From IMG/VR virus record IMGVR_UViG_3300033146_004399, positions 32,001 to 96,000 of that record: a stretch of 64,000 nt of DNA; one strand, given 5' to 3'. Made by a program: the position numbers and the translations under genes. The notes below the pieces were generated by a model. The model was not told the DNA's origin. It made no database searches and saw only the letters and a list, made by a program, of their open reading frames with translations. Shown here in pieces: positions 7,401 to 58,227 of the stretch (position 1 is its first letter; each line of letters begins with the position of its first letter). The stretch is from a virus.

Positions 7401-8382
7401 AAGGAGCAGTTAAATAAGAATAAATTTCTGAGAACATAAAGTCAATTAACACTGGAGAACCAGCGGTAACAACTTCAATACCAAAACCCGTTTCCATTCC
7501 GCCAGCACCATCTTGAGGGACTGTAGGTATGCCCGAAACGGCATTAGTAATTGTTACAACAGCCATAGAAGAAGATGCACTAAAAGCTGCATTTGTACCA
7601 ATAGCACTTGCTGTAGCAGAAGCAACCGTATTAGCATCCGCAAGAGGTGCTACTGTAACAGCAATACCTGTTCTTCCAGGATTCGACATTGCAGGGTCTA
7701 TAGAACTTTCACCTGAAACGGTATACCAAACATAGTAATCTATTGAAGGAGAAGAGATTCTAAAATATTTACCATTAAGAGAATGGTAATAAGTTGGCGA
7801 AGCAGTACCAGTAGCAACATTTTCTACTGAATAATCTGCAACAGTTGTAATTTCGGTTACTTCTGCGACAGCCATTGTAAAAGCTGTACCATCAGTTTTC
7901 TTAAATGCAAGAGTATAATTTCCTACACCACCACCAATGTCATCATTGGAAAGTTCACCGTAAACTTGTCCACCAAGACCATCTTGTATAGGGTCCTTAG
8001 TTGATGCATCTCTAATTTGAACTTGATAATTTTCTGTACCAGTACCAGATCCAGACGTACCTGTTGTAAGTACACCTTTTTCAGTACCTGCTAGTACTGC
8101 TGTATCTGTTGTTGCAGTAGATGAAACTACTGTTGTTACATCTATTGATGCTCCAGATACGGCTTGAGATGTTGCGACATCCCATAGTGCGATTAATTGA
8201 GAGTCGAGAACCGCTTGGTGTACTGATTCATTTGAATGTAAATCAGTTGCAACAAGTGAATTGGTTAAGTTTAATTTTTCGTAAACTATACCACTATCCC
8301 ATCGACTGTCTGTATTACCCGCAACATTGTAATTGTTAATTTGACCACCTTGAATTTGGTCACCACGAATGGCTGTTAACAT
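1480..8382 (-). CDS. Giant virion fibre/appendage protein (2300 aa) with beta-rich repeats and a CBM-like insertion
   Basis: Asp/Thr/Ala/Gly-rich repeats; tail-fibre motifs (LDNRYYTESE; DLNVTGTTTTINSQDLLVADNQIVLN...WNESTDTW); modules shared with 46679 ORF; SD GGAGG upstream. Confidence 0.8.
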   Translation of the reverse strand: MLTAIRGDQIQGGQINNYNVAGNTDSRWDSGIVYEKLNLTNSLVATDLHSNESVHQAVLDSQLIALWDVATSQAVSGASIDVTTVVSSTATTDTAVLAGTEKGVLTTGTSGSGTGTENYQVQIRDASTKDPIQDGLGGQVYGELSNDDIGGGVGNYTLAFKKTDGTAFTMAVAEVTEITTVADYSVENVATGTASPTYYHSLNGKYFRISSPSIDYYVWYTVSGESSIDPAMSNPGRTGIAVTVAPLADANTVASATASAIGTNAAFSASSSMAVVTITNAVSGIPTVPQDGAGGMETGFGIEVVTAGSPVLIDFMFSEIYSYLTAPYTAFITGIGFADVVGISGSHNHHDLYYTKIELESGQLDNRYYNKTQMDGGQLDNRYYTESEIDPNPGTDTGTAKLDTRYFLESELISTSNGSSGADLVGVTPTGSMASATVQNALEELQGDIDNILDGTANINFSLDDAYDDGSVVAVDDTLVDWQLTDTKSFKITADTGATNLINVEALATGDVVEFDVARFTVNAADNSVFTNVGADTSIITTTSGNVILNAVDGVDIDAANVTIDGTAASSFKTTGAPLNIETVTSGDLTVKSVANLLVKDSFLGAALPLSQSGTTSLSANFDTATSIIGGINENADDLYYLINTTLPATLDGSAGADQVGATGITGVIPTGGTLGGDATVQAMLEGIALGSAGGKVFPSLGTGAGGTESGDPTNPGNLLDEKASGMYFKNNEIVYVLDTNRYVIVKTGTTALVEGTDWDYLWGSNEPMGGDEFNVTSDAVTVDTTGAMTVNVDGGLILADDSGAHVNISAVGQVDIDSAAGQTITVASDTEIELNGGTLVDIDGAAITMDGQLTATGAADDNMVVTTSGTGQIQLSAADEIDLTGGIIDINAGAGKEVFIDSDTEVQINGGALVDIDATNITTDGILTQTGATQVIGDMDLDGSIDHDGATFNSTLTDTGIDSFTIETVGGVIINSDEGIALTDDSGNQVKLNINGSLDLHSATGQTASMATTGGAAITTSDTEADITADVVDINATTITIDGQLTATGALNDNIIMNTTGTGQVQVNSEVEVDLNAPLVDIHGDVVIESNKQLYVDKINITSVDPSDYATITGTRGGDLNVANLLVNSGFEAGSAVVADNWTQDAEALRTGAEQFYNAYSLRYFNAAPAAAGTVAILTQTADAPLTDAASYVFSIYAKGVNAAPVQVSLGGGTAVELIATGAATGAWVRYEAVAVAGATNEDIVVQIVNAGTEESDIFFDAAMLETGSGAATDYFTTYFSNLVFTVGDEDNDQIIFRSEGTATSDLMRINQDTVEILGDLNVTGTTTTINSQDLLVADNQIVLNTNVTGSPTLDAFYTVERGDETNAQIKWNESTDTWELYNHSNTQFETIMTSATGSTTISMDIAYDGGSAVDVDDTDVTFTMDTTKSFILADAVDTAKFVVTAGSAADSVKIDTTGGVSFLASKMTFGNSLAANSVGFIGIDGTVLVRAGNTGGDVDIATSDGLKQLLITDEQIKLNIAGSSDADSIFINSTGGGIDVNATLKVDVDAAGIELDSTVASNFTVAEANLTLSTTTSGNVGISAATTVDIDAVTSVTVDAPAIDTTGVLTQTGNAQIVGDLDLDGSFDQSGNYTFLINTTATAADAVSITSAGGMDVVAASSFDLGATNINTTGILLQTGATQVVGDMDLDGSIDADGTDINIAAAGTGGTHLALSSADAASLTAVGITIEAGTGALVAEADAASSINVNGANLTVSTATSGDVVIDSAANVTFSDQYQTVPITFAQNLVDGLVTDFAYNSQTDFDFTTRETGTDAITSVLGAINVNREDMWEYIELLSTQGAAFGTAAGANLIGVDGITGILPTGGSVGDDSNLQAMLEGLALAGGGGKTYTDEATFLAAKAAGTFFKLNEHIHILDTNRTAIVKVQGLATAEGVDWDYVHGSARPMGDAEFFVSTTSKISLATADFDISTSTFDIVANNAVLVDGASTVTVDGATGLNLVTAAVMDMDAVTFDIDGTTFDALMAGGISLDASSASNFTVDGAALTLSTTTSGDVNITSAGDIVETSTTLTQNVTTFDMNASGAFTLDGAANSFIRTTAADLTLQTIGSGGIAFKDWDMAAAMPLTDPSNVAFTFDAQASAPVSIYDAINRAYSNTGDVSKKSYMEAPTLSSTDVSKAYLQVSDETFTFNGLAVAAAGTNDAYDLPGGGSNLALTPSQLRATYGVYLVVYLNGLRLSDSEWGYIYDQASGEKYVTFNNDHSTSDFTWATAANAVDAIALSVTDHIVFDCTYNRSATA

Positions 8383-8467: not shown

Positions 8468-10060
8468 ATGTTATTAAAAATAAATGATGAAAAAATATTA
8501 AATATTAAAACAACAGATGGTAAACTATTTTTAAATGAGAAAAAGGTAAAAAAATATGATAAAATTGAATATAGGTGCGATAAATGTTCAATTACGGAAA
8601 CCATACATTATAGATATAATAAAAAATTTAATAATCATATAATTCTTTGTACAAAATGTGCTCGAAAACAAACTAATATAGAACACTTCGGTGTAGAAAA
8701 TATATCACAATCTTCTATTATACAAAAAACTATAAGAGAAAAATCAATAGAAAAATATGGCACTAAGCATTTTCTATCTTCACCTAAAGTAAGAAAGAAA
8801 ATAAAACAAACTAATATAGAGAAATATGGTGTAGACGAAATATTTAAACTAAAAGGTTTTAAAGAAGAAACAAAAAAAATTATGATTGAAAGGTATGGTG
8901 TTGAGTATTCTCTTCAATCTAATGAAATTAAGAATAAATATAAAACTACAATGCTTGAAAAATATAAAGTAGATAAACCAATGCATTCTACTATTATTAA
9001 AGATAAAAGACGTTTAACTATACAAAGCAATATTAAAAATGAATTGATGAATTTCAAAGAATTCGAACCTCTTTTTGCACTAAACAGATTTCGTGGAATA
9101 AATCATATCTATATGTGGAAATGTAATAAATGTAATTCAAAATTTGAAGACCATCTTAAAAATGGACATATACCTAGATGCCCTAAGTGTTATCCTCGTA
9201 ATATTAAAATAGATAGAAAGGTAAATAATCTTCACGAGTGGTTAAAGACATTAAATATAGGAGAAATACAATTAAACAATAAAGAGTTAATTAAACCTTT
9301 TAATATAAGTATATATCTCCCTAATCATAATTTGGCTATAGAGTTAGTAAGTCTTTATTGGCACTCTGAGATACAAGGCAGAAGTAAAGATTACCATTTA
9401 ATTAAGTCATTACGTTGCTCTGCGCAAAACATTCAAATGATTTATATATTTGAAGATGAGTGGGTTTATAAACAGGAAGCCGTTAAATCTATTATAAAAA
9501 GAAAATTAAATTTAATCACAAACAATATAAATGCAAAAGAATGTAAAGTTGGTATTATTAGCAACAAACAAGCAAAAGCATTTTATGTAATAAATAATAT
9601 TAAAAGTTTTATATATAATAAAATTAATATAGCTCTTTTTTATAATAATGAAATTGTAAGTTGTTTAAGTATATCTAAACCTAGATTTAATAAAAATTAT
9701 AACTGGGAAATAACACGTTTCTCTAACAAAACAGATTTATATATTATAAATGGTTTTAATAAAATGTTGCAATATTTTAAGAAAGAACACAATGGTTCTA
9801 TTATTGCTTACGGTGATTGTCGTTATTATGATTCTAATATATATGAGAATAATAATTTTGAACATATTAATCAATCTGAACCAAATTATCATTATACAAA
9901 TTATGTAGAGAGATTTGCAAGATTTAAGTTTAATAAAAAAAAGTTGAAAAAAATAATTACAAATTATAATCCTAATTTAACTGAATGGCAAAACATGCAA
10001 CTAGAAGGGTGGGATAGAGTATGGGACGTGGGTAATGATGTTTATGTTCTCATTTCATAA
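8468..10060 (+). CDS. Free-standing homing-endonuclease-like protein (KYG repeats + Vsr/Hef-like nuclease + C-terminal domain)
   Basis: CxxC motifs, T-x-x-E-K-Y-G repeats, IYLPNHNLAIE...YWHSE...IFEDEW, C-terminal WEITRF...GWDRVWDVGN as in Hef-like phage endonucleases. Confidence 0.75.
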   Translation: MLLKINDEKILNIKTTDGKLFLNEKKVKKYDKIEYRCDKCSITETIHYRYNKKFNNHIILCTKCARKQTNIEHFGVENISQSSIIQKTIREKSIEKYGTKHFLSSPKVRKKIKQTNIEKYGVDEIFKLKGFKEETKKIMIERYGVEYSLQSNEIKNKYKTTMLEKYKVDKPMHSTIIKDKRRLTIQSNIKNELMNFKEFEPLFALNRFRGINHIYMWKCNKCNSKFEDHLKNGHIPRCPKCYPRNIKIDRKVNNLHEWLKTLNIGEIQLNNKELIKPFNISIYLPNHNLAIELVSLYWHSEIQGRSKDYHLIKSLRCSAQNIQMIYIFEDEWVYKQEAVKSIIKRKLNLITNNINAKECKVGIISNKQAKAFYVINNIKSFIYNKINIALFYNNEIVSCLSISKPRFNKNYNWEITRFSNKTDLYIINGFNKMLQYFKKEHNGSIIAYGDCRYYDSNIYENNNFEHINQSEPNYHYTNYVERFARFKFNKKKLKKIITNYNPNLTEWQNMQLEGWDRVWDVGNDVYVLIS

Positions 10061-26976: not shown

Positions 26977-27321
26977 ATGGAAATGTTTAATAAAGATGGT
27001 GATCCAACTAAAGAATTTTTTGTATTTTTAAAATATAATACTATACCTTCAACTGAAGTTAAATTATTAGAATCAGACATAATGCTATATAATGATTTTT
27101 CTAGTAAAATGAGATTATTAACAAAATATGTTAATAATGATGATGATAGAATGAAAGTTATCTCGTCCTCATTGTTTTCTATGTTTGGTTATAGTAGACA
27201 CTATTGCAGTATGACTGGTTCACCTATAATCGGGAAGTATTTCAAAATTAATGGTAAAGTTGTAAGTCGTGAAGCCTATGAGTCATATAAAATAATTCAA
27301 GAAATTGAGGATAAATATTAA
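26977..27321 (+). CDS. Hypothetical protein
   Basis: SD AAGGGGT. Confidence 0.7.
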   Translation: MEMFNKDGDPTKEFFVFLKYNTIPSTEVKLLESDIMLYNDFSSKMRLLTKYVNNDDDRMKVISSSLFSMFGYSRHYCSMTGSPIIGKYFKINGKVVSREAYESYKIIQEIEDKY

Positions 27322-27322
27322 A

Positions 27323-29041
27323 ATGACTATTGAAATTGATAATAAATTTGTAGAATACAATCATGATTTATTATTAGAAGATAAAAATAAAAAACGAAAT
27401 AAATTTACATATGATAACAAATCAATTTCAGTAACAAATAGAATGCAATTTTATTGTTCTAAGTGTGGCAAAACCGTAAATACTATATTTAGATACTATA
27501 ATGATTCTTTTGTAACTTTATGCAAAAATTGTAAAAAAGAATCAACTATGATAAAAAATTATGGTGTAAAATCTAATTTTTCTCGTGAAAAAGTTTTAAA
27601 CAAAATAAAACAAACTAATTTAAAACGATATGGTGTTGAAAATCCTTTTCAGTCTGAAGAAATAAAAGAGAAGATAAAGCAAACTAATTTAAAAAAATAC
27701 GGACATGTTCATGCGATGAACAATGATAATATAAAAAATAAATGTAAAGCAACTCAATTTAAAAATAATAATGGGAAATTTGCTTTTAACAGTAAAAAAC
27801 AAGAATTGACTATGATTAAAAAATATGATGTCAAACATGCTTTACAGAACAAAGAAGTTTGCCAGAAACAAAAAGAAATAATGATTAGCAAATATGGCAA
27901 CAAAAATAATTTTAATAAAATTAAAAAAACAAATTTAAAACGATATGGTGTTGAAAATCAATTTAATAGAAATTCTATAAAACAACGAATAGCAAAACAA
28001 AAAAAAATAAATTTTTTTAAATATTTAAAAAAACGAAATGAAAATATAGTTCCATTGTTTAATATTGAAGAATATACTAATGTTAGTTTAAGCTATAAAT
28101 GGCAATGTAACAAATGTAATACTAAATTTAAAGACAATATAGATGACGGTCATATACCTAGATGTCCTACTTGTTTTCCTAAATACAAATCTAAACCTGA
28201 AAAAGAAATTACTGAGTGGATTAAATCTTTAAACATTTCTAACATCATTGAAAATGACAGATCTATTTTAAGCGGTAAAGAGTTAGACATTTATTTACCT
28301 GATTATAATCTAGCTATTGAATTTAATGGACTTTACTGGCATTCAGAATTAAATGGTAAAGACAGAAATTATCATTTTAATAAAACTATTGAATGTGAGA
28401 AACAAGGTATACAATTGCTTCATATATTTGAAGATGAATGGATCGATAAACAGAATATTATAAAGAATATAATTAAAGTTAAATTAGGTTTAATAGATAA
28501 AAAAATATCTGCTAACGAGTGCACAATAAAAGAAATAGATAATCAAGAAGACTTTTTAAATGTAAACCACGTACAAGGATATATACCTGCTGAAATAAAT
28601 ATAGGTTTATATCATGAAGAAGAATTGGTTGGTCTTCTTACGTTTAGTAAATTTAGATATAATGAAGATTATGACTGGGAAATACTTAGATGTGTTGATA
28701 GATTAGATACACATGTGGTCGGTGGGTTTGCTAAAATATTGAAATATTTTACAAATAAATACAAAGGTAGTATAATAGCATACTCAGACAGAAGATTATG
28801 CAGTGTGAATATATATGAAAATAATGGATTTATGAAATTAAAATTTACCAGGCCAAGGTGTTATTATTTAAATAATAATAATTATTTTATACGCTACAAC
28901 AGACAACAATTTCAAAAACATAAACTAGATACTTTTGATCCTTCGTTAACAGAATGGCAAAATATGCAGTTAAATGGTTGGGATAGAATATGGGATGTTG
29001 GCAACAATATATTTATATATAAAGGAGAACTATATGTCTAA
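27323..29041 (+). mobile_element. Homing-endonuclease-like gene (KYG repeats + Vsr/Hef-like), paralog of 8468 ORF; start at second ATG
   Basis: KELDIYLPDYNLAIEFNGLYWHSE...HIFEDEW; LTEWQNMQLNGWDRIWDVGN almost identical to 8468 C-terminus; SD GAGGA before 27323. Confidence 0.8.
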
Positions 29042-32824: not shown

Positions 32825-33931
32825 ATGATTAAAGCAATTAAGCTTTATAATTTAAACAAATCAATAATTGTTAATGACATTAAAATAATTGAAACAGAAT
32901 ACAGATTAAAAAAATTTAAAACGTTATTAATCAATAAAGAATATAAACTAATACAAAGAGATAAAATAACATTTATATGTGACGAGTGTAAAAGAGAATT
33001 TGAAGAAAAATTTGCTTTTAATAAAAAGTTTTTTGGATTAAAACAAAATTGTAGGACTTGCGATATATCAAAAACAAAGTTGATAAAATATGGTTCTAAA
33101 AATGGTTTTTCTCAAATAGAAAAAAGTGTTATGAATAAATATGGGGTTAAGAGTGTTTTTCAGTTAGATTTTGTTAAAAAGAAAATTGAAAAAACATTTA
33201 TAAAAAGATATAACGCTAAGAATAATTTTGGACGGTTTGAAGTTAGAAAAAAATTATATAATAAAGATGGCAGTTATAAAAATAATAGAAATAGAGCTAA
33301 AATGACTAATATTAAAAAATATGGCGTCGAAAATGTATCCCAGCTTAAAGAAATAAAAGAAAAAAAGAAAAAAACATGTTTAAAAAATTATGGAGTCGAG
33401 AATATATTTCAAGATAGAATTTTAATGGAAAAACTAATGTTTGCTAAATATGGCGTAAAACACCCGCTTGAATCAAAAATGATAAAAAACAAAATGAAAC
33501 AAAATTTTTTAAAACATTGGGGTGTGGAATATCCTGGTCAACATCCAGAAATTCACAAAAAGCAAATGCATTCTTTTAAAAATAAAACATCTGTTAAAAT
33601 TATAAATAATAATTTATATTACCAAACTAAGCCTGAATTAGAATACATTGTATATTGTCAAAATAATAACATTGATATATATAATGGGCCTTCTGTACCA
33701 TATATGTTTGAAGGTAAAAAACATATTTATCATATAGATTTTGAAACTGATAAATATGTAGTGGAAATTAAAGCATCTCATATATGGTATAAACAAAATC
33801 TAGTTTCGGGTAAGATAGAGGCTAAAAATAAAGCAGCTAAAAAATATGCAACATCTATAAATAAAGAATTTCTCTTTTTATTAGATGTTAAAGATTATAA
33901 AAAATATATGGAGAATTATAATGTCAGATAA
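32825..33931 (+). mobile_element. Homing-endonuclease-like gene (KYG repeats + TnsA-like PD-(D/E)XK)
   Basis: CDEC/CRTC motifs, KYG repeats, HIYHIDFETDKYVVEIK. Confidence 0.75.
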
Positions 33932-34322: not shown

Positions 34323-35231
34323 GTGGGCAAAAAACTAACAACAGAACAATTTATAGAGAAAGCTAAAACTATACATGGCAATAAATATGATTATTCTCTC
34401 ACTGATTACAAAGGTGCTTTTAAAAAAGTTAAAATAATATGTCCAGAACATGGAATATTTGAACAAATAGCAAATTTACATATTCATAAAACAAAAAAAC
34501 AAATTTGTCCTATATGTACTAAAATTATAAAAAATAAAAAAATGTCTAAAACAACTGAAGAATTTATAAAAGAAGCAAAAGCTATACATGGTAATAAATA
34601 TTATTATTCATTAGTTGATTACAAAAATTCATACACTAAAGTTAAAATAATCTGCCCTGAGCACGGGATATTTAAAATACAACCTAGAGCCTTCATATTT
34701 AATAAACAAAGTTGCTCAAAATGTACAAACTATATTAGGAAAACAACTGAAGAATTTATAAAAGAAGCAGAGGCTATACATGGTAATAAATATAATTACT
34801 CGTTAGTTAAATATAAAGGTGCTAAAATTAAAATTGAAATAATATGTTCAAAACATGGAATCTTTAAACAATTACCAACTGTTCATATTAATGCAAAAAG
34901 TGGATGTCCTATATGTAATGAATCAAAAGGTGAAAAGGCAATAGCTCGGTACTTAGACAATAAAAATATACAATATATAAGAGAATATAAATTTAATGAT
35001 TGTAAAAACATAAAGCCTCTTCCGTTTGATTTTTATCTTCCTAATAAAAATATATTAATAGAATATGATGGAAAACAGCATTATAAACCGATTGAACATT
35101 TTGGTGGAAAAGAAACATTTAAACAACGTAAAATAAATGATGTTATTAAAACTAAATATTGTATAGATAATAATATTAAATTGATAAGAATTAGATATGA
35201 TGATAATATTATAAAGATGATTAACCTTTAA
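34323..35231 (+). mobile_element. Homing-endonuclease-like gene (DUF723-like Zn repeats + Vsr/DUF559-like nuclease)
   Basis: IHGNKYDYS..ICPEHG.F.Q...H....CPIC repeats; LPFDFYLPNKNILIEYDGKQH. Confidence 0.8.
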
Positions 35232-37264: not shown

Positions 37265-38128
37265 TCAATACGGCATCGCGAGAAGAGATAAGGGATCTAT
37301 AGAAACGCGATTGTTTCTTATTTCATAGTGAAGATGCGGTCCAGTAGAAGGTCCTGAACTGCCTATATAGCCGAGAATATCGCCTCTTTTAACATGTTGC
37401 CCCCATTTAACTATAAAATGATCTGCATGCCCATAATATGTTTCAAAACCATAATCATGTTTAACAATTAGAAATTTACCATAATCAGGATGTTCTCCTG
37501 TGCTATAGTTATTTGTATAGATTGGACCTACGATACCGTCGGCTGTCGCAAGAATAGGTGTAGAAGAATCACCTGGTATATCTATTCCGGCATGGAAACG
37601 TATTTCACCTGGTTTGAATGGATTTTCAATAAAGCCGTAACCTGCAGTAATACGAGGTATTCCCCCACTAACAGGCCAAGAAAATGGGAATGAATTTATA
37701 AATCCCTGTCTTGCTGTTAAATAATCTTTAACTCCAGACATAAGAAGGAGATCATCATTCATACTTGATATAGTCGTTTGCATTTGGAGCAAAACACTTT
37801 CATCACTTGTAGGTATTTTGAACTCTGTAGTACCACCTACAGCGGTATCTTTATTATATAGAAGTTTAACTATTTCTTTAACATTAAATCTATATTGATC
37901 TCGTATTTTAATAACATTTTTAAGTTGTTCTTTGTATTTGGTTATTTCGTCATCTCTCTGAAGAATTTGATATTCTAATACAGTAATTTGACTTTCAGTA
38001 TTATATTTTGATACGATGCTAGCTATGAATAAAGCAGAAGAGACCGTTATGACAAATGCTACAGCTAATATTATTATCACAACCTTTCGATGAACTAATA
38101 TAATAAATCTTTTAAAAAATTTATTCAT
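37265..38128 (-). CDS. Membrane-anchored M23 family peptidoglycan endopeptidase
   Basis: N-terminal TM + coiled coil; HAGID, YGH, STGPHLHYEIR zinc motifs. Confidence 0.9.
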   Translation of the reverse strand: MNKFFKRFIILVHRKVVIIILAVAFVITVSSALFIASIVSKYNTESQITVLEYQILQRDDEITKYKEQLKNVIKIRDQYRFNVKEIVKLLYNKDTAVGGTTEFKIPTSDESVLLQMQTTISSMNDDLLLMSGVKDYLTARQGFINSFPFSWPVSGGIPRITAGYGFIENPFKPGEIRFHAGIDIPGDSSTPILATADGIVGPIYTNNYSTGEHPDYGKFLIVKHDYGFETYYGHADHFIVKWGQHVKRGDILGYIGSSGPSTGPHLHYEIRNNRVSIDPLSLLAMPY

Positions 38129-43673: not shown

Positions 43674-44783
43674 TTATATTATAAGCTCCTTTTTTAATAC
43701 GTCTTTAATATTTTCATTATATTTTATTCTAATTAATTTTATATTATTATCTAAACAATATTGATTTTTAATTTTATCATTTTGTTGTATATATTTAAAA
43801 CCTTCTTCTCCGCCAAAAAAATCTATAGGTTCATAATGTTGTTTTCCATCGTATTCTATTAAAAGCTTATCATGTATATAAAAATCAAATGGAAGAGGAA
43901 GAATATTTTTACAGTCATTAAATCTTTTTTGTCTTATATATTGTATATTTTTATTATCTAAATAATGAGCTATTGCTTTTTCACCTTTTGATTCATTGCA
44001 TACCGGGCAACCTGTGTCACCATAAATATGATTTCTTGCTATTTGTTCAAATACTCCATGAATAGGACATATTATTTTAATTTTTTCTCTACCTATTGTA
44101 TATTTAGAAAGAGAGTAGTTATATTTATTACTATGTATTAATTTTGCTTTTTTTATAAATTTTTTTGTATCAATTCTGCTTTTCAATCTATAACATTTAT
44201 CACAACCTGCTCCATTTAAATGCGCAGGCGGGATTTGTTCAAATATTCCATGTTCTGGACATATTATTTTAACCTTGGTATTTGCATTAATATAACTAAC
44301 TAAAGAATAGTTATATTTACTACCATGTATTTGTTTAGCTGTAGTAATAAATTTTTCTTTAGTAAATGATTTTATACTTTTTATATAATTATGTTGACAT
44401 TTAATGCATCCTTTGCCACTTAAATGCGCATCTGGTCTTTGCTCAAATGTTCCGTGGATAGGACATATTATTTTAATTTTAGTTTTATTGTTTATATATT
44501 CAACCAAAGAATAATCATATTTATTGTCATGTTTTTTAGAAGCTTGTTTTATAAAAGTTTCAAGTGTTTTAGTTTTAAATTCTGTTCGTTTTCTTATACC
44601 ACATTTTTTACATCCTCTATTGTGTAAATGATTTTTGGGTGTTTGTGCAAATATACCGTGTTCAGGACATATTATTTTAACTTTAGTTTTATTATTTATA
44701 TATTCTACTAAAGAATAATCATATTTATTATTATGCACAATATTAGCTTCTTCTATAAATTCATTTAGCGACTTTCTCCCCAT
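43674..44783 (-). mobile_element. Homing-endonuclease-like gene (four DUF723-like repeats + Vsr/DUF559-like nuclease)
   Basis: KYDYSLVEYINNKTKVKIICPEHG repeats; LPFDFY..LIEYDGKQH; start MGRKS at 44783. Confidence 0.8.
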
Positions 44784-44878
44784 ACATTTAATTATGCTTT
44801 TATACAATAAAAGCAAGACTATTGGTAATAAATAACTTAAGATAATTAAATATAACGAAATATAAGGAGAAATTAATT

Positions 44879-45845: not shown

Positions 45846-46571
45846 ATGGGCAAAATTTTAACAACTGAAGAATTTATAAAAAGAGCTAAAGAGGTGCACA
45901 GTAATAAGTATGATTATTCAAAAACAAAGTATAAATTAGCCAGAGAAAAAATTGATATAATATGCCCAATTCATGGTTCTTTTAAACAACAGCCAAATCA
46001 TCATCTGAAGGGACACGGATGTGAAAAATGTGGTCATGTTAAGACTTCAAGTCATCATACGAAAACTGTTCAATATTTCATAAAAAAAGCTAAAAGAATA
46101 CATAATAATAAATATGATTATTCTTTGGTTGAATACATAAACAATAAAACTAAAGTTAAAATAATATGTCTAAAACATGGTATATTTGTTCAAACACCAG
46201 ATAATCATTATAAAGGTAAGGGTTGCCCAGTTTGTAAAGAGAGTAAAGGTGAAAAGGCTATAGCCCATTATTTAGACAATAAAAACATACAATATATAAG
46301 GGAACACAGATTCGATAATTGTAAAAATATTCAAGCGCTACCATTTGATTTTTATCTTCCTGAATATAATATATTAATAGAGTTTGATGGAATACAGCAT
46401 TTCTCCTCAAATTTTTTTGGTGGAGAAAACGGTTTAAAATATCGAAAACAAAATGATAAAATTAAAAATCAATATTGCATAAATAATAATATTAAGCTAA
46501 TACGGATAAAATATAATGAAGATATAAATTTAATATTAAACACGTTGGTCAGTACGAATACCTGTTTATAA
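45846..46571 (+). mobile_element. Homing-endonuclease-like gene (two DUF723-like repeats + Vsr/DUF559-like nuclease)
   Basis: Same repeat and LPFDFYLPEYNILIEFDGIQH motif. Confidence 0.8.
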
Positions 46572-46678: not shown

Positions 46679-49600
46679 ATGCCGAGATTAAGATCGGAGC
46701 AGATTCAAAATTTAACATTAACTAACGCCCAAATAGGTGATGGTTATACATATGATGCTAATGGCGTCCAAATTGCTGGGTTTGATCCTACAAGATTAAT
46801 AGATCAGCAAAAAATTAAAGATTTAGAATTTCAACCTAATGGTTGGATTTCTCGTGGTATTGTAAATAAAGTAGATGTTTTGCCGGAATGGACAGCAGAC
46901 CTAGAAGGTCGTCTTTTTTATATTGATAGTACTGACCAATTATACTTAGGTATAGGAACAGAACCATGGTTTATATTAATAAGTGGTGATCAGGCTTCAG
47001 GATGGGATGCTGAACTTACAACCCGTATGGGATCAGATGGTACAAATTGGAATGGTACAATGGCTACACAGTTTCAGACTCTCTCTTATACATTTGCAGC
47101 TGATGGTTCAGATTTGTTTGTATATGTCAATGGTTCATTACAAAGATTAGATCATGATTTTGAAATTGTAGATGAAAGAACTATTAGAACTTTACGAAAT
47201 CTAAATGCTAATGACGTAGTAACTATGTTGGTTATTTTATCCAACTCAATGTTAAATTACGCAACTAAAGCTTGGGTATTTGAAAAAATACAGGCTGGTG
47301 GTATTAATCATTCTCTCGATGCTGCTTATGATGACGGAGCAGTGGTAAGCGTTGATTCTCGAGATGTAGATTGGAGATTAGCTCAAGATACTAAATTTAT
47401 AGTAAGTGAAGCTATATCTGGTATAGCTCTTCCTGCTACACATTTAGGTACTAAAGATATAACATCAGGTCACAATTGGCAAACAAGATGGCAAACATTT
47501 GATGTCGTATTAACTAATGCTGGTACAGTTACTGGACCCAAAACGGTAACCTTAAACAATCCAACAGTAACACTTGCAGAAGTAGCAACAGAAATTAGTG
47601 AAGCTTTAGTTACAGCTGGTATTTCAAATTTATATGGTTTTGGTGATACTGGCTTTGCAGGTCTTCAATCAACTGTAGTAGGTAATGACATATCTTTTAC
47701 TCTTGCATCTGGGTCGAATGCACTTCCAATTTTTGGTCTTGCACCACAAGTAGTATTGGGTGATGATGCTTATTCATCTTACCATGAGTTTGGTTTAGAT
47801 GTAGACGCATCTAGTGATGCAGGCCTTGAAGCTGGAGAAAAATTTTGGTTTTCAGTAAATGGAACAGAATATTTTATTACAACTGGTGCCAACGCAACAT
47901 ATGACCAAGTACGTTCTTCAATTGATACAGTATTAGATATTTCGGGGTTTGCAGCCTCAACTGAAGGCGTTTCACCTAATCAAGATATTCGCGTGACAAC
48001 TGATTTAGTTGGATTAGCTAATCCAACAGTGTTAGCTGATATCAATTATGCTGGACAAATTGAAATTACTCAAGTAACTACAGTAGCTGACGTTAATAGA
48101 TCTTTAGATGGTAAATATTTTGCTATTAATTCTATTGATGCTAATCTTTTTGGACATGAAAAACCTTACTATGTTTGGTATCATATTGATGCTGAGCAAG
48201 AAGTAAGTACCATAACTACTACAGCTGAAGATTCAAATGTTACTCTTGCAGGTTCATATTTTGATCTTCATTCACCTACAACAGATTATTTTGTATGGTT
48301 TGAGGTAGAAACACCAGTGTCTGCTGGTTATCAAGAACTTGGTTTGTCAGCACTTAATGCTGGAACAACTACTGGTTTAACAGAGAATACAACTTATTAT
48401 TTTAAGGTTGCAGTGGATGGGCAAGCTCAGCAAGAGTTTAACATCACAACAGCTCCAGATATTCAACCGGTTGCGGAAATTACAGATGTAACTTTCCCTG
48501 CTGATGTTGCTCAAACATATTCTGGTAGGTATTGGGAATTAAATTCACAAACAGGTTCTGGTTATTATGTATGGTATAATATAGATACAGCTGCTGGATC
48601 AGAAGTTACTGATGTAACAACTGTTGCAGACACAGCGCAATCTCTTTCGGGGTTACAGTTTGATATACATACTCCTAGTCAACAATATTATGCATGGCTT
48701 TCTATGATGACCGATCCAGGTCTTCCAGAATTAGCAGAAACTACAGATATAACTACTGTCGCTGATGTTGCACAATCTCTTTCTGGTTCAACATTTTATA
48801 TAAATTCTGCGGATGGTTCACCATACTATGTGTGGTATGAAATGATTACAGATCCTGGTGCTGCTGCAGTTGGTGAAATATCTGAAATAGTAACTGTTGC
48901 AGATAGTGGTCAATCTCTTTCTGGTAAATATTTTGAAGTAAGTACAATAAGTACAGATTATTATGGTTGGTACAGAATGTTGGTTGCCGGTCCTGTCGTT
49001 GGCCAAGAAGAAATTACAGAAATAACAACCGTTAGTGATGCTGCTAAATCTCTTTCCGGAACTTATTGGACATTTAATACTCCTTATAACGAATATTATG
49101 TTTGGAACAGAATGGAATTGACTGCCGCAGAACCTGCTACTGCTGAAGAAAGTACAGCTACTTTTAATTCAAATGTTGTCGGCGATTACGCTGGTCAATA
49201 TATTACAATCCATAATTTTACAACAGCTTATGATATTTGGTTTGATACAACTGGTAGTGATACAGCGCCGGCTGGAGCGATTTCAAATCCAATTGTTGCT
49301 GATATTTCTGGGGCTGCGGATGCAACTGCTATAGCTCTTATTGTAGTTAACGCGGTTAAAGCTGCCACAACAATGTTTTCAACTTCATCGTCTACAGGTG
49401 CTACTATAACATTTGTTGAAGATAACGCTGGTGCTCAGAACAATTCTGCAGACGGTTCAAATGCTGCAGACGTTGACGTTGCAACTTCAGTAACTGGTGC
49501 AGACTATGTTGTTGCTACTTATTCTACAGACCCTGCTCCTGCTTCAAAAACTGGTGTTCAGATTAATGTTGCTGAGAATGATGCTAATACAGTGATTGCT

Positions 49601-52600
49601 TCTGCTATAAATACTCAAATTAATCTTCTTGGTGATGTATCATCTTCAGTACTTGGTGCTGTTATAACAATAACAAATGATGATATTGGTGCTGTTGCAG
49701 ATGCTGTTGATGTTGATTCTGGTTTCTCTACAAATGTAACACAACAAGGTATTTCATCTGCTCCTGCTACTTATTCCACAGACCCTGCAGTCGTTGGTAA
49801 AACGGGAATACAAATTAATATTGCTGAAGATGATAGCGCTGATGCTGTTGCATCTGCAACACAAACGGTATTAGACGGCATGGCTCAGTTTGATGCTGGT
49901 GTTGTTAATAATACTGTAACAATTACTGCTACTACTTCTGGTGCTACGGCTGATGCTACTGCAGGTAATTCTGGTTTTGCGGTTTCAACTACGCAACAAG
50001 GTTCAGATTATATTGCCCCTACTTATTCTACGGATCCTGCACCTGCTTCAAAAACTGGTATTAAAGTTGTAATAGCTGAAGATGATATTGCTGCCGATGT
50101 TGCAGAAGCAACACGAACTGCTATTGATTTACTTGGAAGTTTTAGTGCTACAAGATCAAACAGCACTATTACTATTATTGATGCTACAACTGGTCCTGTT
50201 ACTGATGCTGTTGATATTGATACAGGTTTTGCGATTTCTGTAACTCAACAGGGTCAAGATTATATTGCTCCTACTTATACAACTGAACCCGCTGGTACAG
50301 GCATTGGTATTAAAGTTGATATAGTGGAAAATGATACAAATATAGCAGTTGCTCAAGCTGTCGAGGCTGCATTTAATGGAACAGTTGGTTTTTCAGCTAC
50401 TCGTACAAATGAAACAGTAACTATAACAAATGATGTTGGTGGAGTTGCAACTAACGCAGCAGCTTCAAACTCTGGTTTTACAATTAATATCGTTGAACAA
50501 GGTTATGAAGCTTATAGTTCTACAGACCCTGCTATTATTGGCCGTACTAGTTTACAAGTTAACATAATTGAAAACGATACAGCAGACGCAATTGCTGCAA
50601 AAACTTCTACTGTTATTAACGCTTCAGCACATTTTTCATCTAGTGCTTCTAATGATACGGTAACAATTATTGATGCTAATGGCGGTGCTGTTACAGATGC
50701 TGTTAATGTTGACATTCCTGCTGGTTTTTCGGTTAATGTTTCTACTCCTGGTGTAGATTTTATATCTGCCGATGTTTCTTGGGGACAAATTCTTACATTA
50801 TTAAATGTTTCTACAACATCAGCTGCAACCTGGGCGTTTAATAATGGTGATATTAGACTTACTTCTGATACTATTGGTTCTTGGACTGCTATATCGTTAG
50901 CTGCTGGCACTACTGGAAATGATTTTTTCAGTTCTGTGAATGATTTTGTATCTTTTGATGCTGAAATTCCTGGTGTCTCTTCTTATTCTGCTCAACCTGC
51001 TGGCGTAGGTACTCCTATTAAAGTGCCTGTACTCGTTGGTGCAAACGCTGTTAATGTTGCTTCTTCGATACAAACTGCTGTTGATACTGAAGGTGATTTC
51101 AATGCTGCTGTTGGTGTAAATGTGGGTGTTGATGATCACATTATAACAGTTACAAATGTTGCTACTGGTTTTGTTACAGATATTGCAGATCATGGTACTG
51201 CTTTTGGGCTTACTGTTTTTAATCAAGGTGCTAACGAGTCTACAGACCCAGTTGGTATAGGTACTGGTATTCAGGTTGATATCAATAAAGATGATAGTGC
51301 AACTGATGTTGCAACAAAAACACAAGCGGCTGTTGACTCTGATGGTGAATTTTACGTTACCAGATTAGATGCTGTTCTTTCAGTACAAAATGATTTCTCT
51401 GGTGCTGTTACACTTGCTGCTGATGTTGATTCTGGTTTTGCTTTTACACGGACTGGTCTTGGTGAAGATGTTAAATATGGTATTTTTAGTGCTAATGGTT
51501 TAAACATAACACTTCCTGCAGCTGTTGATGGTATTGATGCTGTTCCAGCGTCTATCGCTGTTGGTACTGCTGATTTATCTGGTGGTTATAATTTTTACAC
51601 ATTTCCTAAAGACTTCGCAGTTGTTATTAGCGGTGAACCTTTAGTTGAAGTTTTCCTAGATGAAGCAGCTTATAATGCAAGTGAAGTAGTTAGTAAAGCA
51701 AATACAAAAATAGCTGATGCTGGTATTACAAATCTTGAAGCTTATCAAGAAGCTGGACATATAGGTTTTAGAACACTTCTTACTGGTTTAGCTCAAAGTC
51801 TTGATCTTAGAGATTCATTATCTGATGCTCTTGTGACTCTTGGTTGGACAGCAGGTATTTATTCCGGTACGTTAGGTCCTGCAGATTCTATCTTTCAAGT
51901 TGACGCTCTTGCATCTGGTAATGAAATTAGATTTGATGCTGATGTTTTACCTCTTGCAACCGGTACAAATAACATTGGTTCTGAAGATTATAAAGTTAAA
52001 GAAATTTGGGCTCAAGATGCTCACTTTGATGCCGGTACAATTTATATTGGTAATGCAAAAATATCAGAAGAAACTAATGAATTTGCCTTTACTGTTGATG
52101 ATGGTGTTAATGAATGGGATCATTTTGGTAATACAAACTCCGCTATTGCTCCTGTTGGTGCTGACAGAATTGGTGTTGCTGGTGTTGTCGGTGTTATTCC
52201 TGAAATCAGTGGTGGCAGTGCTGCTCCTGGTGATCCTGGTACTCTTCAAGAAATGCTTACTGGTTTTGCTAAAAGCGCTGGTGGTGTAAAAGTATTTCCT
52301 GATATGGGAACAACAACTGGTACATACGGCGATCCAACTAATCTTAAAGGTTTTTTACTTGAAAAAGCTGCTGGTCTCTATTTAAAAGTTGGTGAAATTG
52401 TATATATTAAAGACATTAACCGTTCAGTTATGGTACTCTTGCAAGGAACCGGTGTGGTTGAAGATTTCGACTGGACATACTTAGAAGGTGCTGTTCATGC
52501 TGTTGGTGGAGAGAGCATTAAATATGACTTAACTGCACTTGATGCTAATGGTGCTCCTACTACTGGTACTCTTCCAGTTGATTCCTTTTATGTTAAAACT

Positions 52601-53152
52601 ACTGGTGGTATTAAATTAGAAGTAGGGGAAAATGGAGAAGCTGTATCGATAACAGATAATAATGTAAGTGGTATAGCATTATTAGGTCCAGGAACCTCAG
52701 GCTCTAAAATTGATAATTTTGAAAAAGTATATAATGCTGTATGGAATGATATTGCCGACTTTATAGAAGTTGAAGCTGGAATCGAATTAGAGTTTGGTAA
52801 AGTATACACTCGTAAAGCAGATGGTACTCATGGTATCTCTTCTACATATATGGAGAAAGGTATATTAGGTCTTGCCTCTGATACGTACGGTTTTGGTGTT
52901 GGTAAGAAAGATAATGCTGTTGGAACTCAAATTCCTGTAGCTATCGGCGGTATTGTACTTGCTCATGTTAAAGAAGAATACGAACCCGGTACTGCATTAA
53001 CATGTGGTCCTAACGGTATTCTCATGGAATTTAAACTTGAAGATAAGAGAAACTTCCCTGAAAGAATAATCGCTACATATTATAAGCCCGAAGTCAGTGA
53101 AGAATGGAATGGTATTACTGTTGATGGAAGACATTGGGTAAAGATTAAATAA
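46679..53152 (+). CDS. Giant virion fibre/appendage protein (2157 aa) with nested-domain stalk and C-terminal autocleaving-chaperone-like domain
   Basis: Mirror-ordered half-domain repeats 48056-51463; C-terminal VYNAVWNDIADFIE...PVAIGGIV resembles Peptidase_G2-type domain; SD AGGAGG. Confidence 0.85.
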   Translation: MPRLRSEQIQNLTLTNAQIGDGYTYDANGVQIAGFDPTRLIDQQKIKDLEFQPNGWISRGIVNKVDVLPEWTADLEGRLFYIDSTDQLYLGIGTEPWFILISGDQASGWDAELTTRMGSDGTNWNGTMATQFQTLSYTFAADGSDLFVYVNGSLQRLDHDFEIVDERTIRTLRNLNANDVVTMLVILSNSMLNYATKAWVFEKIQAGGINHSLDAAYDDGAVVSVDSRDVDWRLAQDTKFIVSEAISGIALPATHLGTKDITSGHNWQTRWQTFDVVLTNAGTVTGPKTVTLNNPTVTLAEVATEISEALVTAGISNLYGFGDTGFAGLQSTVVGNDISFTLASGSNALPIFGLAPQVVLGDDAYSSYHEFGLDVDASSDAGLEAGEKFWFSVNGTEYFITTGANATYDQVRSSIDTVLDISGFAASTEGVSPNQDIRVTTDLVGLANPTVLADINYAGQIEITQVTTVADVNRSLDGKYFAINSIDANLFGHEKPYYVWYHIDAEQEVSTITTTAEDSNVTLAGSYFDLHSPTTDYFVWFEVETPVSAGYQELGLSALNAGTTTGLTENTTYYFKVAVDGQAQQEFNITTAPDIQPVAEITDVTFPADVAQTYSGRYWELNSQTGSGYYVWYNIDTAAGSEVTDVTTVADTAQSLSGLQFDIHTPSQQYYAWLSMMTDPGLPELAETTDITTVADVAQSLSGSTFYINSADGSPYYVWYEMITDPGAAAVGEISEIVTVADSGQSLSGKYFEVSTISTDYYGWYRMLVAGPVVGQEEITEITTVSDAAKSLSGTYWTFNTPYNEYYVWNRMELTAAEPATAEESTATFNSNVVGDYAGQYITIHNFTTAYDIWFDTTGSDTAPAGAISNPIVADISGAADATAIALIVVNAVKAATTMFSTSSSTGATITFVEDNAGAQNNSADGSNAADVDVATSVTGADYVVATYSTDPAPASKTGVQINVAENDANTVIASAINTQINLLGDVSSSVLGAVITITNDDIGAVADAVDVDSGFSTNVTQQGISSAPATYSTDPAVVGKTGIQINIAEDDSADAVASATQTVLDGMAQFDAGVVNNTVTITATTSGATADATAGNSGFAVSTTQQGSDYIAPTYSTDPAPASKTGIKVVIAEDDIAADVAEATRTAIDLLGSFSATRSNSTITIIDATTGPVTDAVDIDTGFAISVTQQGQDYIAPTYTTEPAGTGIGIKVDIVENDTNIAVAQAVEAAFNGTVGFSATRTNETVTITNDVGGVATNAAASNSGFTINIVEQGYEAYSSTDPAIIGRTSLQVNIIENDTADAIAAKTSTVINASAHFSSSASNDTVTIIDANGGAVTDAVNVDIPAGFSVNVSTPGVDFISADVSWGQILTLLNVSTTSAATWAFNNGDIRLTSDTIGSWTAISLAAGTTGNDFFSSVNDFVSFDAEIPGVSSYSAQPAGVGTPIKVPVLVGANAVNVASSIQTAVDTEGDFNAAVGVNVGVDDHIITVTNVATGFVTDIADHGTAFGLTVFNQGANESTDPVGIGTGIQVDINKDDSATDVATKTQAAVDSDGEFYVTRLDAVLSVQNDFSGAVTLAADVDSGFAFTRTGLGEDVKYGIFSANGLNITLPAAVDGIDAVPASIAVGTADLSGGYNFYTFPKDFAVVISGEPLVEVFLDEAAYNASEVVSKANTKIADAGITNLEAYQEAGHIGFRTLLTGLAQSLDLRDSLSDALVTLGWTAGIYSGTLGPADSIFQVDALASGNEIRFDADVLPLATGTNNIGSEDYKVKEIWAQDAHFDAGTIYIGNAKISEETNEFAFTVDDGVNEWDHFGNTNSAIAPVGADRIGVAGVVGVIPEISGGSAAPGDPGTLQEMLTGFAKSAGGVKVFPDMGTTTGTYGDPTNLKGFLLEKAAGLYLKVGEIVYIKDINRSVMVLLQGTGVVEDFDWTYLEGAVHAVGGESIKYDLTALDANGAPTTGTLPVDSFYVKTTGGIKLEVGENGEAVSITDNNVSGIALLGPGTSGSKIDNFEKVYNAVWNDIADFIEVEAGIELEFGKVYTRKADGTHGISSTYMEKGILGLASDTYGFGVGKKDNAVGTQIPVAIGGIVLAHVKEEYEPGTALTCGPNGILMEFKLEDKRNFPERIIATYYKPEVSEEWNGITVDGRHWVKIK

Positions 53153-57330: not shown

Positions 57331-58227
57331 ATGGGAAAAAAACTAACAACGCAAGAATTTATAGAAAAAGTTAAAGCTATTCATGGTAATAGATATGATT
57401 ATTCTTTAGTTAATTATAGAGGTGCACATAAGAAAATAAATATAATATGTCTAAAGCATGGAGTATTTGTACAAACCGCAAATAATCATTACCGCGGAAA
57501 TAATTGTCCTAAATGTTATGCAGATATATTAAAAAATTCACGTAAAGACGACTATAATAGTTTTATATCAAAAGTTAAAAAGCTTAATAATAAATATGAT
57601 TATTCTTTGGTAGAATATGTAGATAGTCAAACTAAAGTTAAAATAATATGCTCTGAACATGGTGTGTTTGAACAAACACCAAATAACCATATAACTAAAA
57701 AACAAGGTTGCCCTATATGCGGTGGAAGTAAAAAGCTAACTACTGATATTTTTATTCAGAGAGCAAAAAAAATACACAATAATAAATATGATTATTCTAA
57801 ATCTTTATATATGGGTATGGAGGTAAAAATTGATATAATATGTTCAAAACATGGAATATTTAAACAAGTTCCAAAACATCATTTAAATAATCATGGGTGC
57901 CCGATATGCAATGAATCTAAAGGCGAAAAAGCTGTGGCAAAATATCTAGATGATAATAATATTAAATATATAAGACAAAAAAGATTTAATGATTGTAGGA
58001 ATAAACACCCGCTATCTTTTGATTTTTATGTTCCAAAAAATAATATTTTAATAGAATATGACGGAATACAACATTTTGAAATAAATGAACATTTTGGCGG
58101 TAAGAAAGGTCTAGAACATATACAAAAAAATGATGGAATAAAAAATAAATATTGCAAAAATAATAATATAAAACTTATCAGAATAAAATATAATGAAAAT
58201 ATCAAAAATAAATTGGAGCTGATATAA
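57331..58227 (+). mobile_element. Homing-endonuclease-like gene (three DUF723-like repeats + Vsr/DUF559-like nuclease), leaderless, coupled to terminase
   Basis: Same repeats; LSFDFYVPKNNILIEYDGIQH; AAGATAA-N5-ATG; TAATG overlap with terminase. Confidence 0.8.

Follow-up and report, generated by a model that had tools for sequence, protein, structure and literature searches.

The stretch of DNA analyzed here, hereafter called the window, comprises 64,000 nucleotides of a virus (bases 32001-96000 of the 179,366-bp IMG/VR record IMGVR_UViG_3300033146_004399) and contains the gene for a 2157-residue protein, P0001, the central part of which is built of two types of short repeats, designated A and B halves, in mirror order. 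Scans with sequence motifs and hidden Markov models (HMMs) detect exactly eight A halves (residues, aa, 461-857) and then eight B halves (aa 858-1603), the order along the chain being A1 A2 X A3..A8 B8..B3 X' B2 B1, where X and X' are segments of a different kind (table 1). An earlier note made from the sequence alone had described this layout, namely a run of A halves with X after A2, one complete unit A8B8 and a run of B halves with X' before B2. The scans bear it out, and the positions given for it are all correct (YQELGL of X at nt 48329, the complete unit at 49148-49525, DVSWGQI of X' at nt 50771); the further intact A+B unit reported at 7456-7866 is likewise real, and lies on the minus strand inside the open reading frame (ORF) 1480-8382. 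The same note proposed that each domain is inserted in the same loop of the preceding one, the chain running out to a tip and back, and it is this proposal that we weigh here.

Table 1. Features of the P0001 gene and of other genes in the window (positions count from the first base of the window).
Feature	Position	Strand	Residues	Basis or remark
P0001, whole gene	46679..53152	+	2157 aa	uninterrupted ORF; ORF list and translation
Y1, intact flanking domain	47462..47749	+	aa 262-357	paralogue of Y2
X0, intact X-type domain directly before the nest	47771..48058	+	aa 365-460	96 residues
A1 + A2, outgoing halves, levels 1 and 2	48059..48307	+	aa 461-543	HMM matches
X, putative N-terminal half of X-type host domain, level 3	48311..48454	+	aa 545-592	48 residues
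A3-A8, outgoing halves, levels 4-9	48455..49249	+	aa 593-857	HMM matches and AlphaFold2 strands
A1-A8, singly		+	aa 461-503, 504-543, 593-635, 636-676, 680-722, 725-767, 770-812, 815-857	motif and HMM scans
B8-B3, returning halves	49250..50764	+	aa 858-1362	HMM matches and AlphaFold2 model
X', putative C-terminal half of X-type host domain	50765..50983	+	aa 1363-1435	73 residues
B2 + B1, returning halves, levels 2 and 1	50984..51487	+	aa 1436-1603	HMM matches
B8-B1, singly		+	aa 858-945, 946-1029, 1030-1113, 1114-1197, 1198-1277, 1278-1362, 1436-1517, 1518-1603	motif and HMM scans
Y2, intact flanking domain	51584..51847	+	aa 1636-1723	paralogue of Y1
C-terminal region	51896..53149	+	aa 1740-2157	one module common to ORF 1480-8382
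Contiguous intact A+B domain, reference for the unsplit form	7444..7887	-	aa about 170-317 of the 2300-aa ORF 1480-8382	
Homing/HNH endonuclease genes	8468-10060, 27305-29041, 32825-33931, 34323-35231, 43674-44816 (-), 45846-46571, 57331-58227			

The repeats of P0001 are far beyond chance. Non-circular HMMs, trained on segments of proteins that do not belong to the P0001 clade (463 A and 507 B), again find exactly eight A halves (independent E 3e-8 to 4e-17) and exactly eight B halves (independent E 6e-4 to 8e-31). A self-BLAST of P0001 for repeats outside the nest found nothing; profile searches brought out the pair Y1/Y2 there. The outgoing linkers have 2-10 residues, and the returning linkers follow the pattern QQG..Y(S/T)TDPA. 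Five metagenomic orthologues (2140-2379 aa, 52-58% identity over the repeat region) share the 8+8 layout and carry X and X' at the corresponding points. These bear on the suspicion, natural for a metagenome-derived virus contig, that faulty assembly or gene calling, for instance a chimeric contig or an inverted duplication, has produced the layout. We give that explanation hardly any credence: the frame is open over 2157 codons, the five orthologues with the same layout come from independent samples (Logan, ENA, JGI) and lie in syntenic loci despite their divergence, and an inverted DNA duplication would not yield a mirror order of two different half-domains on one strand.

Two linkers, those after A4 and A5 (P0001 aa 676-690 and 720-733; window about 48704-48877), read M(M/I)TDPG....E and resemble the (S/T)TDPA..GKTG motif that opens every B half. 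They may be a vestige of the insertion origin, a duplicated junction or a paired linker structure.

Outside the array of P0001, A and B are found joined to each other. The intact domain of ORF 1480-8382 consists of an A match (aa 195-226) and a B match (aa 228-317) connected by a short loop, and carries a 17-residue insert after strand 1. Nine contiguous A+B units stand in tandem in P0007, a giant flagellin (1806 aa) retrieved as a relative by the homology search, in which Flagellin_N, Flagellin_C and FG-GAP domains are also present. The 155 family proteins scanned locally contain 205 A-B pairs that follow each other directly, the median gap being 4 residues, and in P0001 itself the connection of A8 with B8 is a short loop, as in the contiguous units. 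A and B are the halves of one contiguous domain of about 125 aa. An alternative would be that P0001 carries two independent tandem arrays, the A segments building a beta-rich repeat structure of their own and the B segments a string of beads, with A and B unpaired and with their equal numbers and the placement of X and X' coincidental. B alone (84 aa, beta-alpha-beta-beta-beta) does resemble small ferredoxin-like folds able to stand alone, and the structural model of the full length, considered below, is uninformative; yet such arrays would have to be reconciled with the contiguity of A and B in one domain elsewhere.

They would also have to be reconciled with the grammar of the family. Under nested insertion a B half closes the most recently opened A half, and for this reason the order of A and B matches along a protein is expected to read as a word of balanced brackets, an order that two independent repeat types would not be expected to give. 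A and B are equal in number in 104 of the 155 proteins, and 102 of these 104 architectures are balanced-bracket words, whereas 1000 shufflings of the order within each protein yield 29 on average and 43 at most. The common words are ABAB (31 proteins), AABB (18), AAABBB (16) and ABABAB (13), and the rarer ones A4B4 (4), A5B5 (2; P0010 and P0026) and A7B7 (1; P0021, 943 aa); mixed words, for example AABBAABB and AAABBAABBB, also occur. Nesting depths between 2 and 8 (2, 3, 4, 5, 7 and 8 occur) are read in about 45 of the 155 proteins. By these architectures nesting appears to be a habit of the family, of which the 8+8 clade would be the deepest pure nest among the 155 proteins.

Some family members deviate from the simple words. 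P0011 (2893 aa) has about ten B matches and six detected A matches, its successive A halves being spaced by repeat domains of ~400 aa with recurring LDSTH motifs. It has the look of a nest with large additional domains on its outgoing strand, and its depth may be comparable to that of the 8+8 clade. In P0071 and P0148 inserts of about 120-125 aa, which match neither A nor B, occupy the loop between A and B; given these inserts, the A-B loop serves as an insertion site in general, accepting other domains as well.

Were each Ai the partner of Bi, the A halves should resemble one another in the same pattern as the B halves do. We compared the identity matrices of A1-8 and B1-8, averaged over the six orthologues, and obtained r 0.90 when Ai was paired with Bi in mirror order, as against -0.03 for parallel pairing; the mirror value was reached by 33 of the 40320 possible permutations. 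Without the divergent unit 8, r is 0.64 and 44 of 5040 permutations are as good, and for units 3-7 alone 2 of 120 permutations equal the mirror pairing. When nine deep nests were tested singly (seven other proteins plus P0001 and P0003 rescored alone), mirror pairing exceeded parallel pairing in eight of them; permutation within single nests gave 7 of 5040 for P0021 and 1 of 24 for each of P0040 and P0079. Similarity that follows the mirror rather than the parallel order is difficult to explain with independent arrays.

The same holds for X and X', which are the two best non-self matches of the X0 HMM in P0001. X is matched at model positions 3-30 (E 1.3e-3) and X' at positions 53-89 (E 0.037), and because these ranges of the model are separate, X and X' are complementary pieces of one domain type, split after the third strand and lying about 770 residues apart, rather than two unrelated segments that happen to interrupt two arrays. 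A short member of the family, P0137 (231 aa), reads X, one contiguous AB unit and then X', and shows the minimal form of the same host-guest pair, X[AB]X'. The possibility that X0 itself is an AB-type domain was considered and discarded (hhalign probability 5.5%), and X is treated as an unlike domain.

We then turn to structure prediction. The three innermost units, aa 725-1113 (A6 A7 A8 B8 B7 B6), were folded with AlphaFold2 (AF2) on an alignment of 14 sequences in register, namely the window protein, three orthologues and ten natural AAABBB proteins. The model has a mean predicted local distance difference test (pLDDT) of 91.7, with no residue below 50 and values of 94-96 in the 40-residue A halves, and a predicted template modelling score (pTM) of 0.57. 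In each unit A consists of three beta strands and B of strand-helix-strand-strand-strand, with a long helix in every unit. The topology of the model was read from structural alignments, that is, from the ranges and lengths aligned. In a search against 48,161 PDB representatives a first group of matches extends over model residues 94-222, corresponding to the contiguous A8B8, and a second group spans model residues 48-303 while aligning only 85-100 residues; the span is that of A7 (46-88) plus B7 (222-305), with the inner unit skipped. One ESM Atlas model aligns 128 residues with a root-mean-square deviation of 2.0 across model residues 1-389, the total of A6+B6 being 127. Solved single domains (the outer domain of a phage sheath, T4 gp11 and T7 gp12) fit A8B8 and the split A7+B7 equally well when superposed. 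Because the split pairs A7+B7 and A6+B6 align in the same way as the contiguous A8B8, the predicted structure of aa 725-1113 is nested at all three levels, with cognate pairing. The equal fit of solved domains to split and contiguous units within a confident model adds to the points already raised against unpaired arrays, which we consider very improbable.

A less improbable alternative, though still one that we judge unlikely, is intermolecular pairing, in which the A run of one chain would complete the B run of another to give a domain-swapped dimer or oligomer. The split A+B units and their mirror order would remain, but in place of a hairpin of one chain there would be a longer rod of several chains. 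Fibre proteins are usually oligomers, the recursively inserted HABAS domains of RNA polymerase sometimes exchange elements of secondary structure (PMC11515920), and the sequence evidence presented above fits pairing within and between chains alike. The single-chain AF2 model, on the other hand, closes all three levels within one chain at the high pLDDT reported above, the short loop between A8 and B8 is that of contiguous units, and the relatives of 231 aa (X[AB]X') and ~320 aa (AABB) are explained most simply as monomeric nests.

We consider it highly probable, then, that the middle 1150 residues of P0001 form a nine-level recursive domain insertion within one chain, probably a structural projecting arm. 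The building block would be the domain of ~125 aa, whose loop between strands 3 and 4 receives another copy of the domain, the operation being repeated eight times and one unlike host domain, X/X', being interposed between levels 2 and 3 of this series. The A halves would be laid down outward, the contiguous A8B8 would form the tip, and each domain would be completed by its B half on the return, so that two short linkers would run across each junction between neighbouring domains. The array would begin and end side by side, between X0/Y1 and Y2. The resulting picture is an arm that projects from a virion fibre or appendage protein and consists of nine beads, held together by two strands of chain; the rest of the protein would be a mosaic of modules common to the neighbouring 2300-aa ORF. 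Y1 and Y2, which match each other reciprocally in profile searches (independent E 4e-8 and 2e-7), flank the nest symmetrically, and the short segments preceding each are weakly alike (E 0.013); the two domains may lie against each other at the foot of the arm.

Seen against the earlier note, insertion in the same loop and a chain running out to a tip and back are supported by the bracket words, the mirror similarity, X/X', P0137 and the AF2 model of units 6-8. Of its long stalk, the nested path of the chain is supported, and the straightness is suggested only by the topology and the short linkers. The AlphaFold check that it recommended was uninformative over the full range and gave nesting with cognate pairing for the three levels of aa 725-1113; the comparison of nesting depth, also recommended, gave a constant 8+8 in the six clade members and depths of 2-8 across the family.

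Several observations weigh against the nested arm, or against parts of it. A mutual-information/log-odds pairing score, trained on the 205 contiguous A-B pairs with the tested protein left out, favours mirror over parallel pairing in 34 of 43 nests (p 8.5e-5), but in 16 of 25, which is not significant, once the innermost pair is removed; its signal mostly reflects the trivial innermost junction and is not evidence for the outer levels. The pairing in the AF2 model is read indirectly, from aligned ranges and lengths, and at a pTM of 0.57 neither the orientation of the domains to one another nor, as a consequence, a straight stalk is certain. The AF2 model of aa 440-1620, from an alignment of six sequences, has a mean pLDDT of 37 and a pTM of 0.26, with only the A8B8 core reaching 56-82, and is uninformative either way; because of this, the nesting of units 1-5 and of X/X' would have to be argued from the sequence evidence only. 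All six members of the clade are 8+8, with no gain or loss of paired halves within it. Finally, no part of P0001 is matched by a known virion, fibre or receptor-binding family. Its location and role are suggested by context, and any binding function would be hypothetical.

With regard to the fold, the AB domain superposes on the alpha/beta fold of the sheath protruding domain, gp11 and FliD D2-D3 type, most of the domain being covered with Z clearly above background. Profile matches are weaker: the best in the PDB are to the sheaths of phages Milano and 7-7-1 (E 0.027-0.13), the Milano sheath being touched at residues 121-208 (E 0.03-0.07). Foldseek gave no match at E ≤ 1e-3. Predicted viral structures yielded 20 matching proteins at E ≤ 1e-3, mostly uncharacterised, with a few called baseplate J-like or sheath. 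On the basis of the model, the AB fold would be the surface-decoration fold of tail sheaths, of the flagellar caps (FliD) and of flagellins, proteins whose termini are locked in the core. The protruding domain is present as one copy in each of the sheaths of Anabaena phage A-1(L), Agrobacterium phages Milano and 7-7-1, PhiTE and Mu, and related single domains occur in T4 gp11 and T7 gp12, without significant sequence similarity to the AB domain of P0001. In the T4 gp18 sheath a few unlike domains are nested. For the sheath-type domain there is no solved protein with a self-nested copy, which distinguishes P0001 from all of these.

Domain insertion usually proceeds for one level, and a 2026 survey of 2.7 million domains gives the six-level Si3 as its example of complex nesting. 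Si3, an insertion in the beta' subunit of cyanobacterial RNA polymerase, contains 8-10 recursively inserted SBHM/HABAS domains in six nesting levels (PMC13114784, PMC11515920, PMC10895346). The earlier note had not recognised any recursive self-insertion as deep as that of P0001; this needs the qualification that six levels were already published (PMC13114784, PMC11515920), the depth in P0001 being probably greater. The two systems are alike in that a small domain type is repeatedly inserted in its own copies, so that the domains are discontinuous and the elongated appendage departs from its host and returns to it at a single point, a geometry that for P0001 is suggested by topology. They differ in fold, all-beta SBHM in Si3 and alpha/beta of about 125 aa in P0001, and no RNA polymerase or SBHM chain is among the structural matches listed for the latter, those from Foldseek included. 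They also differ in regularity, since nesting in Si3 is irregular, branched and with swapped elements, whereas that in P0001 would be strictly linear, with eight self-levels plus one unlike level and near-constant linkers, as well as in host, which is the trigger loop of the polymerase in one case and a phage virion-type protein in the other. The nesting of AB domains, unlike that of Si3, has the character of a family-wide habit. P0001 introduces no new principle; compared with Si3 it is the deeper case, strictly linear and very regular, and built from another fold.

Flagellin and FliD are classic out-and-back chains (PMC6248924, PMC8306008). Flagellin (D0-D1-D2-D3) nests three or four unlike domains, whereas P0001 would nest one domain in itself eight times; moreover, the Pfam scan of P0001 finds neither the Flagellin_N nor the Flagellin_C terminal helical region, both of which are present in P0007. 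In that giant flagellin, aa 316-440 contain nine serial segments resembling strand 1, of the type (Q/A)E(I/V)(S/T)x(I/V)T, after which come nine domain bodies lacking a strand 1 of their own (aa 316-1406 in all). The segments are as many as the bodies without their own strand 1, and P0007 may thus be a nine-deep nest of this family that is split behind strand 1 rather than strand 3; a nest of this kind would suit the out-and-back chain that a flagellin needs.

The genomic setting of P0001 is that of a large phage. Because the 179,366-bp record is rated 63% complete by CheckV, the source is a jumbo phage of roughly 280 kb. The gene for the large terminase subunit (TerL) lies 5 kb downstream of the P0001 gene, and the orthologous loci are syntenic, also with a large terminase gene downstream; in one of them (L002, 22113-25136) this gene contains an intein with a LAGLIDADG domain. 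The window has at least seven genes for homing or HNH endonucleases, two of them directly upstream of the P0001 gene. A protein with an M23-type metallopeptidase domain (37265-38128, minus strand; PHROG E 9e-25), kept in the orthologous loci, is likely a peptidoglycan hydrolase that is virion-associated or acts in lysis.

Two further giant mosaic ORFs of the phage have modules in common with P0001. ORF 1480-8382 (minus strand, 2300 aa) is a mosaic with several such modules. In BLASTP, P0001 aa 1827-1968 matches its aa 656-792 with 44% identity (E 1e-24), its aa 1856-1951 likewise match the same region of P0001, and an INxSLDxAYDDG module is also common to the two proteins. Beyond these, Pfam, PHROGs and NCBIfam provided no annotation for P0001, its ends, its orthologues or the conserved neighbours; P0001 and its ends have no sequence match in the PDB, nor does the C-terminal region match any family, and no further relatives were found for the N-terminal region. 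No relative of P0001 was retrieved by tblastn from 50,697 deposited phage genomes, and no related locus was found in IMG/VR. Across the Pfam, PHROG, NCBIfam, PDB and phage-database searches, P0001 shows no recognised fibre, spike, receptor-binding or chaperone domain and no annotated homologue. Its role is most likely structural.

The family to which the AB domain belongs is large, unnamed and absent from Pfam. A search of 1.84 billion representative proteins with the B profile returned 1855 at E ≤ 1e-3, of which 461 at E ≤ 1e-10, the P0001 clade having the top score, and the family thus counts at least 1855 protein clusters. Most of 67 smaller members that were scanned have no Pfam or PHROG match, and the few annotated among them are a flagellin, a flagellar hook FlgE, a phage tail tube, three tail sheaths, a baseplate wedge and tail fibres; none of ten family clusters that were looked up has a functional name.

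For annotation, a split domain explains why many giant phage proteins contain separate runs of 40-residue and 84-residue repeats, and for protein design the nest offers a natural template for rigid, length-adjustable arms that can be inserted into a loop. The natural series of depths 2, 3, 4, 5, 7 and 8 is also of value for the folding of discontinuous domains, with halves up to 1100 residues apart, and bears on the duplication of paired halves and on the tuning of arm length on phage and flagellar surfaces. We see about even chances that the AB module represents a family whose characteristic mode of growth is self-nesting, a general kit for stalks that leave and re-enter their host at one point, used by virion proteins of phages (sheath, tube, baseplate and fibres) and by flagellar proteins of bacteria (flagellin and hook). 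If so, nesting depth would be an evolvable variable that sets the length of the arm, and growth would require A and B halves to be duplicated in pairs, which is unusual as a mechanism of evolution.

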